This document shows positions 38,123 to 41,055 of a stretch of DNA of 64,000 nt, in pieces. The number at the start of each line of letters is the position of its first letter. Position 1 is the first letter of the stretch. The stretch comes from a phage, in sequence record PX880102.1; one strand, given 5' to 3'. The position numbers were made by a program, and so were the translations under genes. The notes under the pieces were generated by a model. It did not search any database. It worked only from the letters and a program-made list of their open reading frames with translations, and had not been told where the DNA came from.

Positions 38123-38148
38123 AAGCCCCAACCTTTTGGTCGGGGCTA
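38123..38148 (-). terminator. intrinsic terminator downstream of IP-B
   Basis: AGCCCCGACC-AAAA-GGUUGGGGCU followed by UUUUU on minus transcript. Confidence 0.65.
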
Positions 38149-38154
38149 AGAATG

Positions 38155-38628
38155 TTATTTGATTTGTTTAGCAGACCAAATGCGGTCTTTAATAATTTTT
38201 TGAATGTCTTCAACATACTCAAGAGAGTGAACATGTGGATTATCTTTGAAACTATAAGCACGGGCTAACTTTTGGCCTTCGGTTTTGATTACTAAAAGCT
38301 CTTTAAGGATAGCTTCATATTTAGAGATAATTCCTTTAACGATATTTTTTTCTTGTGCAGCTTTAGGATCTGCTTTAGGAGCAGGTTTACCCGAAGCCTT
38401 TGCAAAAGCAGCGCCAGTAGCAACTAGACTTTTCCAGGCCATACTAACCGCATTTCCCGTAAATCCTTCTGCTTTCATGTCGCGAGCAAATTGGAATCGT
38501 GATTCGTCAGAAGCATCTTTATAGGAATATTTACCCGCTGCAATGGCTGCTTTTGCGACAGCTTGAATTTCGGTGCTAGATGCTTCATTTAACACCGCTT
38601 CATTTAAAAATTGAGTATATGATTTCAT
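38155..38628 (-). CDS. internal-protein-like virion protein with capsid targeting sequence (IP-B)
   Basis: 157 aa; N-terminus MKSYTQFLNEAVLNEA resembles IP capsid-targeting sequence; Ala/Lys-rich; RBS AGGAAA. Confidence 0.65.
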   Translation of the reverse strand: MKSYTQFLNEAVLNEASSTEIQAVAKAAIAAGKYSYKDASDESRFQFARDMKAEGFTGNAVSMAWKSLVATGAAFAKASGKPAPKADPKAAQEKNIVKGIISKYEAILKELLVIKTEGQKLARAYSFKDNPHVHSLEYVEDIQKIIKDRIWSAKQIK

Positions 38629-38668
38629 CTTATTTCCTGTTTTAATTCGTGGATTTAATATACTACTA

Positions 38669-38676
38669 TATTTATA
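38669..38676 (-). promoter_or_regulatory. late promoter box upstream of IP-B
   Basis: Exact TATAAATA on minus strand about 40 nt upstream of IP-B ATG. Confidence 0.55.
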
Positions 38677-38680
38677 CTAA

Positions 38681-38706
38681 AAAGCCCCAACCTTTCGGTC
38701 GGGGCT
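38681..38706 (-). terminator. intrinsic terminator ending the tRNA/stable-RNA transcription unit
   Basis: AGCCCCGACC-GAAA-GGUUGGGGCU followed by UUUUU; near-identical to 38123..38148 hairpin. Confidence 0.65.
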
Positions 38707-39010
38707 AAGCCTTGCGGCAACCTTGTCGGGGTTCCACCTGCTAAGGCAAGTGTTTGTACGAAACGCCGGGATTCGAACCCGGTTATTAAGCAGTTGACGC
38801 TACTCAATATTTTTAAAAGGCCATATCTCGACCATATCCGAACGTTCCGTCAAAAACGCTACTCGGCTTACGGCAAAGATATTTCCTCGAATCGATAATT
38901 CTGTGCGCCGTTTCTGCTGTGATGTAAGAGGGCATCAATAAACGCAAGGATTATTAACGCAATTCCTTACTCAGGGAACATCAGTCCGACAACTTACCGG
39001 TAGCGACCCG
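38707..39010 (-). ncRNA. structured non-coding region after tRNA cluster (possible stable-RNA genes)
   Basis: No credible ORF; tRNA-like T-arm CCGGGTTCGAATCCCGG at about 38764..38781; repeated GAGTAGCGT motifs; position matches T4 species 1/2 RNAs by recollection. Confidence 0.35.
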
Positions 39011-39015
39011 GTTTC

Positions 39016-39366
39016 TTAATATTCTTTTAAAGCATAAATCTGTTTACGGCGTTCACGCCATAAATCAATTGCTTCATACGCGGATTCAACATTTCGAATT
39101 GGACGGCATTTATATAAAGATTTGTGATTTTGATATTGCGTAGATAACGGAATTTTATCTAAAAGGTCTTTACGTTCAAAGTATTCGTAACCATCTAAGC
39201 CAAATGAACGATTTTTGAGAAATTGCCAATGACCAAATTCGTTTTGAATATAAATATAATCCGCGTGTTGATAAAGTAAATTAATTTCACGAAATGAGAT
39301 ATGTTTTTCATATTCATTGAAGTAAAATGTTAAATCATGAACTACTAAATAAACATTACCTTTCAT
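39016..39366 (-). CDS. hypothetical protein encoded inside the tRNA cluster
   Basis: 116 aa, ATG with GAGGA RBS starting 17 nt after tRNA-Arg 3' end. Confidence 0.55.
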   Translation of the reverse strand: MKGNVYLVVHDLTFYFNEYEKHISFREINLLYQHADYIYIQNEFGHWQFLKNRSFGLDGYEYFERKDLLDKIPLSTQYQNHKSLYKCRPIRNVESAYEAIDLWRERRKQIYALKEY

Positions 39367-39382: not shown

Positions 39383-39458
39383 TGGTCGAGGCAGTAGGGA
39401 TCGAACCTACGACCTAGGACTTAGAAGGTCCTTGCTCTTCCTTCTGAGCTATGCCCCG
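39383..39458 (-). tRNA. tRNA-Arg (anticodon UCU)
   Basis: Hand-folded cloverleaf; anticodon loop CUUCUAA; T-loop GGTTCGATC; encoded CCA. Confidence 0.85.
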
Positions 39459-39462
39459 TAAT

Positions 39463-39538
39463 TGGGGTGACCGATGGGAGTCGAACCCATGACTACGAGA
39501 ATCACAATCTCGAGTTCTACCAACTGAACTACGGCCAC
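39463..39538 (-). tRNA. tRNA-His (anticodon GUG)
   Basis: Hand-folded cloverleaf; anticodon loop UUGUGAU; discriminator C; CCA encoded; no G at -1. Confidence 0.75.
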
Positions 39539-39652
39539 ATTAATACCTACTCCAACAATCAAGATGTCTTCACACGAAATTAAGAGAAGAGTGATCAGTT
39601 CAACCCCTATAATCGCGTCAAGTAGATATTATTGTGACAGTTGTCACAAATT

Positions 39653-39727
39653 TGGCGGACGTGATAGGATTCGAACCTATAACCAATCGCTTAACAGGCG
39701 ATCGCTCTGCCATTGAGCTACACATCC
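39653..39727 (-). tRNA. tRNA-Asn (anticodon GUU)
   Basis: Hand-folded cloverleaf; anticodon stem ATCGC/GCGAT, loop CUGUUAA; CCA encoded. Confidence 0.8.
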
Positions 39728-39731
39728 AAAT

Positions 39732-39818
39732 TGGTGGGGAGTGATGGAGTCGAACCACCCGAGTCGCAATGACAATGGATTTACAGTCCACACCGCTACC
39801 TCTACGGGATAACTCCCC
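39732..39818 (-). tRNA. tRNA-Tyr (anticodon GUA), class II
   Basis: 87 nt; anticodon loop CUGUAAA; long variable arm; acceptor GGGGAGT/ACTCCCC; D-arm pairing not fully resolved by hand. Confidence 0.7.
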
Positions 39819-39831
39819 TTAATTCTTAATT

Positions 39832-39906
39832 TGGTGGCCCTGGGTGGAATTGAACCACCATCTGGCGATTATGAGTCGCTTGCTTGAACCTTCCAGCTAC
39901 AGGGCC
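39832..39906 (-). tRNA. tRNA-Ile (anticodon CAU, presumably lysidine-modified) or tRNA-Met
   Basis: Anticodon loop CUCAUAA; T4 tRNA-Ile is known to carry a CAU-derived anticodon; CCA encoded. Confidence 0.75.
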
Positions 39907-39907
39907 T

Positions 39908-39983
39908 TGGTGCTGATTGACGGAATCGAACCGCCGACCTTCTCATTACAAGTGAGTTGCTCTACCTACTGAGCTAAATCAGC
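39908..39983 (-). tRNA. tRNA-Thr (anticodon UGU)
   Basis: Anticodon loop CUUGUAA; T-loop GGTTCGATT; CCA encoded. Confidence 0.85.
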
Positions 39984-39988
39984 AAAAC

Positions 39989-40078
39989 TGGCGGAGGCGA
40001 TAGGATTTGAACCTATGAGTCGCCGGAGCGACTGCCGGTTTTCAAGACCGGTGCATTAAACCACTCTGCCACGCCTCC
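39989..40078 (-). tRNA. tRNA-Ser (anticodon UGA), class II
   Basis: 90 nt; anticodon loop CUUGAAA; long variable arm; 2-nt spacer to tRNA-Pro as in the T4 Pro-Ser dimeric precursor. Confidence 0.85.
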
Positions 40079-40080
40079 AG

Positions 40081-40154
40081 TCTCCATACAAGGATTTGAA
40101 CCTTGGACCTCCTGATCCCAAATCAGGCGCTCTACCAAACTGAGCTACACGGAG
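40081..40154 (-). tRNA. tRNA-Pro (anticodon UGG)
   Basis: Anticodon loop UUUGGGA; CCA not encoded (as recalled for T4 tRNA-Pro). Confidence 0.85.
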
Positions 40155-40164
40155 TAAATTAAAT

Positions 40165-40238
<74 letters not shown>

Positions 40239-40243
40239 AAATT

Positions 40244-40330
40244 TGGTGCGAGAAGTGGGACTCGAACCCACAAGGAAATCATTCCGCAGCATTTTAAGTG
40301 CTGTGCCTTTACCAATTTGACCATTCTCGC
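40244..40330 (-). tRNA. tRNA-Leu (anticodon UAA), class II
   Basis: 87 nt; anticodon loop CUUAAAA; long variable arm; CCA encoded. Confidence 0.85.
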
Positions 40331-40336
40331 GCTATA

Positions 40337-40945
40337 TTATTTATTACGTGAAAAAGACTGTTCTATCAATTCTGGACACTTTCGTTCTATCCATTTTCTA
40401 GCTTTTTGTGGGCTTATACCTATTATTTTAGCAGCTTTACTAACCCATCCAAATTTAGAATAATCGATTTTAACTAATTCTTCGTAAATTTCATCAGTTA
40501 AAATCTTTTCATTAATATTTACCAGTAAATGATATAATTTATTATCATTAGCAATTTTAATGAATCTTTTATAGTTTCCGCCTTTACTTAAACCTAATGA
40601 AGTAATTGCAGATGATATAGTAGCCGAATTTAATAACGCGTTTAAAATTTCTTCATCACTAACATTATAACGCTTTTTATTATTTTTAATATTTTTACCA
40701 GCAAAAGTATCAGTTTGCGAATGGCAGTTTGGACATAATAATCTTAAATTAGATTTAAGATGATTTTTGTTATTTCCATCAATATGGTCTAATTGCAGAA
40801 CAATATGCTTATTTTGCCATTTTGAAATTTTACAAATTGCACACTCATATGGAAAAATATTTTCTTTTATTATTTTGTCTTTCAGCTTTCCTGTACTAAA
40901 ATTTGGATGTTTTCCTTCAAAAATTTCAGCTAATTTAGTATCCAT
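40337..40945 (-). CDS. HNH-family endonuclease (free-standing homing-endonuclease-like)
   Basis: ATG at 40945 gives 202 aa (track start is TTG at 40969); motif HIVLQLDHIDGNNKNHLKSNLRLLCPNCH plus upstream CAIC; stop 6 nt before tRNA-Leu. Confidence 0.8.
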   Translation of the reverse strand: MDTKLAEIFEGKHPNFSTGKLKDKIIKENIFPYECAICKISKWQNKHIVLQLDHIDGNNKNHLKSNLRLLCPNCHSQTDTFAGKNIKNNKKRYNVSDEEILNALLNSATISSAITSLGLSKGGNYKRFIKIANDNKLYHLLVNINEKILTDEIYEELVKIDYSKFGWVSKAAKIIGISPQKARKWIERKCPELIEQSFSRNK

Positions 40946-41055
40946 AATATAATTCCCAATTATTAACAAAGGCTCTTAAGCAAGAACCCTTGATGATAGA
41001 GGGTATTAATCAGTGCGATATGAGTTAATAATAACAAATAATTCTTAAAGCATAT

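Follow-up and report, generated by a model that had tools for sequence, protein, structure and literature searches.

Which RNAs does a phage encode between its tRNA cluster and the terminator that ends the transcription unit? The question is raised by positions 38707-39045 of a 64,000-nt stretch of phage DNA (sequence record PX880102.1; hereafter the window). An earlier annotation, the original prediction, had placed there, downstream of tRNA-Arg, a structured non-coding RNA region of about 300 nt. It took this region as a possible counterpart of the T4 species 1 and 2 RNAs or as a tRNA-like element. Species 1 and 2 are stable small RNAs of T4 known since the 1970s. By BLAST the window is a Tequatrovirus (T4-like) genome, and 421 bases around the interval match 805 phage records, mostly T-even phages of Escherichia and Shigella.

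Identity of the locus

In the T4 reference (NC_000866) two misc_RNAs directly follow tRNA-Arg, namely rnaD ('species 2 RNA', 71053-71171) and rnaC ('species 1 RNA', 70908-71046). The minus strand of 38707-39045 is ~97% identical to this annotated locus, and near-identity runs from the start of rnaD to the terminator. In pairwise alignment rnaC matches T4 rnaC over its full length without gaps (137 of 139 bases; window 38895-38757). For rnaD, T4 positions 4-118 align with two substitutions and one deletion (window 39019-38902). Moreover, the same sequence is annotated as rnaD and rnaC in the close relative Aplg8 (KT184308). The near-identity to T4 together with the Aplg8 annotation shows that the reading as species 1 and 2 counterpart was correct. 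As a whole, the interval is very probably best explained as coding for orthologues of the T4 species 2 (RNA D) and species 1 (RNA C) RNAs. The pair is already known; this is a rediscovery and no new element, a piece of textbook T4 biology recognised from raw sequence alone.

Ten tRNA genes lie on the minus strand at 39383-40330. Downstream of them and of an open reading frame (ORF) of 116 amino acids (aa), rnaD and rnaC follow in this order on the same strand, upstream of the intrinsic terminator of the transcription unit (Table 1). The predicted region is indeed structured. Instead of a single RNA of ~300 nt it comprises rnaD (118 nt) and rnaC (139 nt), separated by 6 nt, and a trailer of 50 nt; the uppermost 26 nt are part of the ORF. 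The T-arm, the duplicated GAGTAGCGT motif and the terminator are found on the minus strand where they had been placed. As predicted, no plausible ORF lies in the interval, only TTG-start ORFs of 24-50 aa overlapping it. Minimum free energy (MFE) folding is markedly more stable than expected for rnaC (z = -4.55) and for the trailer with terminator (z = -4.56), with only z = -1.0 for rnaD. Rfam yields no family for either RNA at gathering or at permissive thresholds.

Table 1. Features of the rnaD-rnaC locus in the window, in the direction of transcription.
Feature	Position	Strand	Basis
TGCTTTA, 'MotA-box-like' motif, judged outside the element	39028..39034	-	6 nt upstream of TATTAA, within the 116-aa ORF
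rnaD (T4 species 2 RNA orthologue), 118 nt	38902..39019	-	T4 alignment, 18-sequence alignment, per-sequence folds
6-nt spacer GAAUUA between rnaD and rnaC (T4: AAAUUA)	38896..38901	-	T4 alignment
rnaC (T4 species 1 RNA orthologue), 139 nt, tRNA-like	38757..38895	-	T4 identity, covariance model, MFE z
rnaC acceptor stem, CGAUUCG	38888..38894, pairs with 38765-38759 (CGUUUCG)	-	Five Watson-Crick pairs and two U.U mismatches
rnaC long irregular (bent) arm, ~25 bp, five helical segments; cap loop UUGACG (38853-38848)	38818..38887	-	Compensatory changes
rnaC 10-bp hairpin with 6-nt loop CGUCAA (38799-38794)	38784..38809	-	Changes on both sides in all 10 stem pairs
rnaC T-arm CCGGG-UUCGAAU-CCCGG, CCGGGTTCGAATCCCGG	38766..38782	-	Sequence; covariation
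rnaC 3' tail UACAA (discriminator U, then ACA)	38754..38758	-	Conserved among homologues
Structured 3' trailer with hairpins CACUUGC-CUUA-GCAGGUG, AACC..GGUU and GCC-GCAA-GGC	38707..38756	-	T4 alignment, fold z
Intrinsic terminator AGCCCCGACC-GAAA-GGUUGGGGCU with U tract, end of the tRNA-cluster unit	38678..38706 (hairpin 38706-38683)	-	Terminator scan

rnaC folds into a tRNA-like structure with two complementary loops

Homologues of rnaC were gathered from GenBank phages and IMG/VR. Pattern scans of IMG/VR and metagenomes added only about a dozen useful loci, matches to gapped patterns being mostly due to chance. The fold was derived from the window copy and compared with 24 sequences aligned by MAFFT alone. 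It is 92% paired there, compared with ~40% for controls with slid partners, and 25 of its pairs differ on both sides. A covariance model based on this alignment finds exactly one copy in the window (157.5 bits); such a search had been named by the original prediction as a check. The alignment was enlarged to 28 sequences (25 distinct, spanning at least six genera) by adding the copies of RB69, Moon and Klebsiella phage 17-11. It is 89.6% paired over 54 pairs, of which 36 are compensatory, a level reached by none of 500 shuffles.

The fold is a four-arm junction consisting of an acceptor stem, a ~25-bp irregular arm, a 10-bp hairpin and a T-arm, with an A/U-rich linker between the long arm and the hairpin. 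Pair 3 of the acceptor stem alternates between A-U and G-C among homologues. The two U.U mismatches of this stem are replaced by U-A and A-U in the Jiaodavirus copy and invariant elsewhere, so that the Jiaodavirus stem is entirely Watson-Crick (CGGUAUG/CAUACCG). The same copy has CAC/GUG in place of AGG/CCU. In the long arm, compensatory pairs make up 16 of 20 in the basal helix and five of six in the apical helix, and counts based on MAFFT concur. The middle pair of the T-arm stem co-varies through U-A, G-C, A-U and C-G. Many unpaired positions do not vary from genus to genus, namely UUCGAGGA, GGCC, the linker AAAAAU, the two loops and the tail UACAA.

Strikingly, the cap loop of the long arm (UUGACG) and the loop of the 10-bp hairpin (CGUCAA) are perfectly complementary, which makes them a candidate kissing loop or pseudoknot. 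This loop-loop helix is 100% paired in the 25 distinct sequences and occurs in three versions: most lineages have UUGACG/CGUCAA, one Klebsiella-phage lineage has UUGGCG/CGCCAA, and Jiaodavirus has UUGCAG/CUGCAA. Since the covariance model does not contain the loop-loop pairing, the alignment is not biased towards it. The contact can be broken and restored by design and thus offers a handle for experiments.

Of the features of a tRNA, rnaC has the acceptor stem of 7 bp, made by its two termini, and the T-arm, whose loop fits UUCRANY; the predicted fold has neither a D-arm nor an anticodon loop. Hence, according to this fold, rnaC is a tRNA mimic, in line with the tRNA-like element suggested originally. 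An unpaired, conserved GG (38822-38821, minus strand) adjoins the junction. It is changed to CG in the CIP9 lineage, where the T-loop is altered as well, and this single lineage hints at a contact between the GG and the T-loop resembling that of D-loop and T-loop. The tail reads UCCAA, i.e. with an encoded CCA, in two Klebsiella-phage lineages, and the annotated 3' end of T4 rnaC stops at UA. ARAGORN and the Rfam model RF00005 do not report rnaC as a tRNA, the best match within the clan being tRNA-Sec with 16.6 bits against a threshold of 47. Neither ARAGORN nor Rfam gives a tmRNA match, and rnaC contains no tag reading frame.

An alternative acceptor pairing proposed by ARAGORN for Karamvirus copies (an internal CGRAACG with the 3' strand) was rejected, as its third pair is A.C in copies outside Tequatrovirus and the pairing is absent in divergent lineages. 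The two copies of GAGTAGCGT (38864-38856 and 38805-38797, minus strand) are weak evidence by themselves, because the repeat is absent from more distant homologues and ~0.2 such repeats are expected by chance (estimate for a 9-mer in ~340 nt).

rnaC is retained in tRNA clusters of T-even-like phages

rnaC is at least 95% identical to the window copy in 681 of 746 phage records. The covariance model also detects it in RB69 (Mosigvirus) and in Citrobacter phage Moon (Moonvirus), as well as a divergent copy in Klebsiella phage 17-11 (Jiaodavirus). Overall it is found within or beside tRNA genes in at least six enterobacterial T-even-like genera (Tequatro-, Mosig-, Karam-, Kanagawa-, Moon- and Jiaodavirus). 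An isolated rnaC in Kosakonia phage 305 is the sole exception among the genera examined. In Karam-, Moon- and Jiaodavirus the gene lies in the middle of the cluster and not at its end: it is flanked by tRNA-Trp and tRNA-Gly in Karamvirus and by tRNA-Met and tRNA-Gly in Moon, and directly follows tRNA-Pro in Jiaodavirus. In Kanagawavirus and others it comes after tRNA-Met.

The model finds no rnaC in the tRNA clusters of Aeromonas phage Aeh1 and Vibrio phage D479 or in loci of the Dhakavirus type; weaker matches are ordinary tRNA genes or insignificant. Its 3' motif has no match in 185,579 bacterial and archaeal genomes, and no host-genome match is seen in 5,426 E. coli genomes. The Dhakavirus-type loci (L003:1620-1700, L136, L137, L138, L141) retain rnaD and the trailer without rnaC. 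Their junctions (…GCGCACCGAA|CACUUGCC…) suggest that rnaC may behave as a cassette between short A-rich repeats. A further locus, L135, has unrelated sequence after rnaD.

The locus is labelled inconsistently in public records. ARAGORN and submitters call the 3' ~95 nt of Karamvirus-type rnaC 'tRNA-Phe(gaa)' or 'tRNA-Met' (L005:1547-1642, L006:647-741, L010:7816-7911), and many Tequatrovirus records carry a 'hypothetical protein' coding sequence (CDS) over rnaC and rnaD. These labels are probably mis-annotations. In practice this means that annotation pipelines mislabel a locus for whose two RNAs Rfam holds no family.

rnaD is built from conserved modules around an exchangeable hairpin

For rnaD, 18 distinct sequences from Tequatro-, Mosig- and Dhakavirus were aligned. 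A 5' module of ~48 nt, which includes the hairpin ACCGG-GUCGCUA-CCGGU, and a 3' module of ~22 nt (UCACAGCAGAAACGGCGCAC) are near-invariant. The centre is a hypervariable hairpin of ~50 nt for which four non-homologous cassettes (V1-V4) occur, each predicted to form a long hairpin; the window carries the T4-type cassette V1. Phages exchange this hairpin in the form of non-homologous cassettes. Accordingly rnaD is far more variable than rnaC, with only 129 of 736 matching records at least 95% identical to the window copy. Pair counts back the variable hairpin by compensatory changes. The 5' hairpin and the long-range closing stem show compatible, wobble changes only, including a C>U of the window's own.

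A published change falls within this hairpin. In three lines of phage BW-1 adapted to host ECOR34 the single-nucleotide polymorphism (SNP) 164264 T>C was fixed, and the virulence measure RBG on this host rose from 0.17 to 0.98; the authors assigned the SNP to rnaD and drew no structural conclusion (PMC12685909). Mapped onto the GenBank record OR125554, it is position 76 of rnaD, A>G on the RNA strand. The mapping assumes that the coordinates of the paper are those of the GenBank record, and the rnaC-rnaD range given in the paper agrees with it. The SNP affects the inner stem of the hairpin in cassette 3 (CACAG-UUUUA-CUAUG, changed to CUGUG), where it converts a C.A mismatch into a C-G pair, as in other phages with that cassette, and stabilises the predicted hairpin by ~5 kcal/mol. 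On a semi-permissive host, the published rise in virulence thus goes together with the repair of one pair in an exchangeable hairpin. This suggests that an intact rnaD hairpin is important on some hosts.

Transcription and processing

In T4, a middle promoter that precedes the tRNA cluster gives rise to a precursor transcript of ~1.75 kb, which covers the tRNA region and ends after the species I gene (PMC2330249). RNA sequencing classed T4 RNAC and RNAD as late RNAs, and a Northern assay was performed with an RNAC probe (PMC9697503). In the window, 351 bp of ORF intervene between tRNA-Arg and rnaD, while rnaD directly abuts tRNA-Arg in T4, JS98 and RPN187; only 6 nt separate rnaD from rnaC.

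We infer that rnaD and rnaC would be cut from the long tRNA-cluster transcript by host enzymes of tRNA maturation. RNase P may cleave at the 5' end of rnaC and thereby free the 3' end of rnaD, in which case rnaC would have the spacer as its RNase P leader. An endonuclease cut in the A/U-rich stretch at the stop codon of the ORF (39018-39016) would produce the 5' end of rnaD. Exonucleases, possibly together with the CCA-adding enzyme, would finish the 3' ends, and both RNAs would then accumulate as stable molecules acting in trans. Reportedly, species 1 RNA shows tRNA-like features and can be cleaved by RNase III in vitro.

Possible roles and alternative explanations

The function of rnaC and rnaD, two abundant RNAs known for 50 years, is given as unknown in the T4 literature (PMC3014915, PMC9697503). 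As it has no anticodon loop, rnaC cannot decode. It displays the acceptor/T-arm half of a tRNA and would therefore engage a protein that reads this half. We tentatively propose, as the likeliest of the possible roles, that both are dispensable, host-dependent accessory RNAs acting in trans, with rnaC diverting a protein that recognises the acceptor/T-arm half and rnaD acting via its variable hairpin on a host-specific partner. No complement of at least 12 nt to rnaC or rnaD as an antisense target is present elsewhere in the window, except for the duplicated terminator. A more specific version is a counter-defence or host-range pair. Here rnaC would be a chargeable or CCA-tailed top-half mimic, locked by the kissing loop, that diverts a host factor targeting the acceptor ends or the elbow of tRNAs, and the rnaD hairpin would determine host specificity. 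This version is hinted at by the BW-1 change, which restores a hairpin pair along with growth on ECOR34, and we regard it as distinctly unlikely.

Several points speak against the orthologue assignment with its proposed functions. Helix 3 of the rnaD MFE fold had to be rejected, its U-A pair being broken in 9 of 18 sequences; the predicted rnaD fold is no stabler than shuffled sequence; and the conserved rnaD modules are too invariant for covariation testing. The loop-loop pairing of rnaC could be intermolecular instead of intramolecular. Expression of rnaC and rnaD is reported for T4 only (PMC9697503). The steps by RNase P and the CCA-adding enzyme are deduced from the tRNA-like shape and from T4 literature of the 1970s, the BW-1 SNP could instead change how stable the neighbouring mRNA or tRNAs are or how they are processed, and the decoy idea for rnaC is hypothetical, its partner purely putative.

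Alternatively, the locus might act in cis only. The structures would serve 3' processing, stability and termination of the tRNA/ORF transcript by shielding the upstream tRNAs and mRNA from 3' exonucleases and offering entry sites for RNase P, and the structured RNAs would be by-products without function in trans. Such a module fits the place of rnaD and rnaC in Tequatrovirus, where they close the unit at its 3' end, immediately before the terminator. It also fits the abutment of rnaD and tRNA-Arg in T4, JS98 and RPN187, by which the rnaD 5' end doubles as the site of 3' processing of this tRNA, and the dispensability of the tRNA region for phage development (PMC2330249). However, rnaC lies mid-cluster in three genera, its invariant unpaired positions would be needless for a mere exonuclease block, and the loop-loop tertiary contact kept by covariation argues for a defined three-dimensional shape. 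In T4, moreover, the RNAs accumulate as discrete stable species (PMC9697503). We therefore consider a purely cis-acting module unlikely.

Alternatively again, rnaC might be a chargeable tRNA-like RNA which is trimmed, supplied with CCA and aminoacylated, and then acts on the ribosome or donates its amino acid like the tRNA-like domain of tmRNA. Its 'top half' of acceptor stem and T-arm, the conserved discriminator U and the tail (U-CCA-A in the two Klebsiella-phage lineages, U-ACA-A elsewhere) point in this direction, as does the conserved GG near the junction, where the GG of a D-loop would meet the T-loop, with the joint change in CIP9. This is set against a CCA that is unencoded in most copies, including that of the window, the failure of ARAGORN to report a tmRNA and of Rfam to report a tRNA or tmRNA, and the lack of a tag reading frame. 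Nor is there a recognisable set of synthetase identity elements, and the annotated T4 3' end is at UA. Charging of rnaC thus seems very unlikely.

The interval could also be a separate unit under a MotA-dependent middle promoter, as the original prediction had implied by pointing to TGCTTTA just upstream. The motif exists and matches the core of the MotA box. It lies one base off the predicted place, inside the 3' end of the 116-aa ORF. In T4 middle promoters the MotA box is centred near -30, ~11-13 bp upstream of the sigma-70 -10 element. From TGCTTTA to TATTAA, the closest hexamer resembling a -10 element, there are only 6 nt, and a start there would fall inside rnaD, past its conserved 5' end; a sigma-70 scan finds no promoter-like site at this position. 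T4 makes both RNAs without the motif sequence, and T4, JS98 and RPN187 retain rnaD without the ORF that bears it. For the spacing and for this retention we reject the promoter, which is highly improbable.

There is next to no probability that the interval is a decayed tRNA pseudogene or a set of small-protein genes: the isolated T-arm does resemble a tRNA remnant, and TTG-start ORFs of 44 and 50 aa as well as CDS annotations of relatives cover the interval, but the rnaC covariation (36 compensatory pairs) excludes decay, rnaC is near-identical in 681 of 746 records, the rnaD cassette swaps destroy any reading frame, and T4 makes stable RNAs from the equivalent locus (PMC9697503).

Surroundings of the locus

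The trailer is retained even in phages without rnaC (JS98 and relatives), and T4 rnaC has the same terminator downstream. Within the trailer (38707-38740) lies AACCCCGACA, a near-copy of the 5' arm of the terminator (AGCCCCGACC); it could pair with the 3' arm of the terminator as an alternative structure.

The 116-aa ORF (39016-39366, minus strand) is inserted exactly between tRNA-Arg and rnaD. It belongs to PHROG 3355, of unknown function, without a Pfam match. It is absent in T4, JS98 and RPN187 and present in RB69 (ORF150c), BW-1 and Pinarejo. Its TAA stop (39018-39016) overlaps the T4-equivalent 5' end of rnaD. For the two flanking ORFs Pfam gives no match and PHROGs only families of unknown function.

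Downstream, a cassette of ~560 bp that is absent from T4 (38124-38706, minus strand) is flanked by terminators of near-identical sequence, one at 38706-38683 and the other at 38147-38124. Inside are an ORF of 157 aa (38155-38628; PHROG 2280, unknown function) and a late-promoter-like TATAAATA (38676-38669). T4 has a single terminator, directly followed by sequence equivalent to ~38123-38060, and some relatives have an insertion of ~520 bp downstream of rnaC.

On the other side of the tRNA cluster, an ORF of 210 aa (40337-40969, minus strand) stops 6 nt before tRNA-Leu. It carries an HNH-type motif (LDHIDGNNKNH...CPNCH), scores 17.2 bits with Pfam HNH, which is below the cutoff, and is probably a homing endonuclease. 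The window does not contain the tRNA-Gln that precedes tRNA-Leu in T4 and Aplg8. Within the cluster, the 114-nt spacer between tRNA-His and tRNA-Asn (39539-39652, minus strand) folds with z = -3.4 and includes the hairpin UUGUGAC-AACU-GUCACAA. No Rfam family matches this spacer above threshold; it could be a further structured spacer RNA or a processing element.

Comparison with known systems

The window locus shares with T4 rnaC/rnaD the orthologous sequence, order, strand, trailer, terminator and place at the end of the tRNA cluster. It differs by the 116-aa ORF where T4 has 1 nt between tRNA-Arg and rnaD, and by an rnaD ending in CACAG instead of CACCA. Unlike that of T4, its tRNA set corresponds to the T2/RB3 type (PMC2330249).

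Like a canonical tRNA (RF00005), rnaC joins its two ends in a 7-bp acceptor stem and has a UUCGAAU T-loop, a discriminator base and four arms around one junction, and its gene stands among tRNA genes. In contrast to a tRNA it is 139 nt long, has no D-arm or anticodon loop, contains two acceptor U.U mismatches and shows ACA in place of CCA.

With the tRNA-like domain of tmRNA (SsrA) rnaC has in common the mimicry of the top half and a body leaving the junction as a long helix. tmRNA is processed like a tRNA, and rnaC, to which we liken it, presumably is too. The series of pseudoknots, the tag ORF and the G3.U70 of tmRNA are absent from rnaC, which has an extra hairpin before the T-arm and is restricted to phages, as the search of bacterial genomes for its 3' motif was empty.

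A phage-encoded stable RNA with two complementary, co-varying loops is also known from phi29, whose pRNA is ~120-170 nt in size. The pRNA loops pair between molecules, resulting in a ring on the packaging motor. T4 packaging, unlike that of phi29, is not known to need an RNA.

Finally, YrlA (a Y-RNA-like RNA, RF02553) and other mimics copy part of the tRNA shape, as does rnaC, presumably to engage tRNA-binding proteins. At permissive Rfam thresholds a weak YrlA match in the region falls on real tRNAs and not on rnaC. The two RNAs differ in the use of their termini: in YrlA the tRNA-like module is internal and the ends form the Ro-binding stem, whereas the ends of rnaC form the acceptor stem itself.

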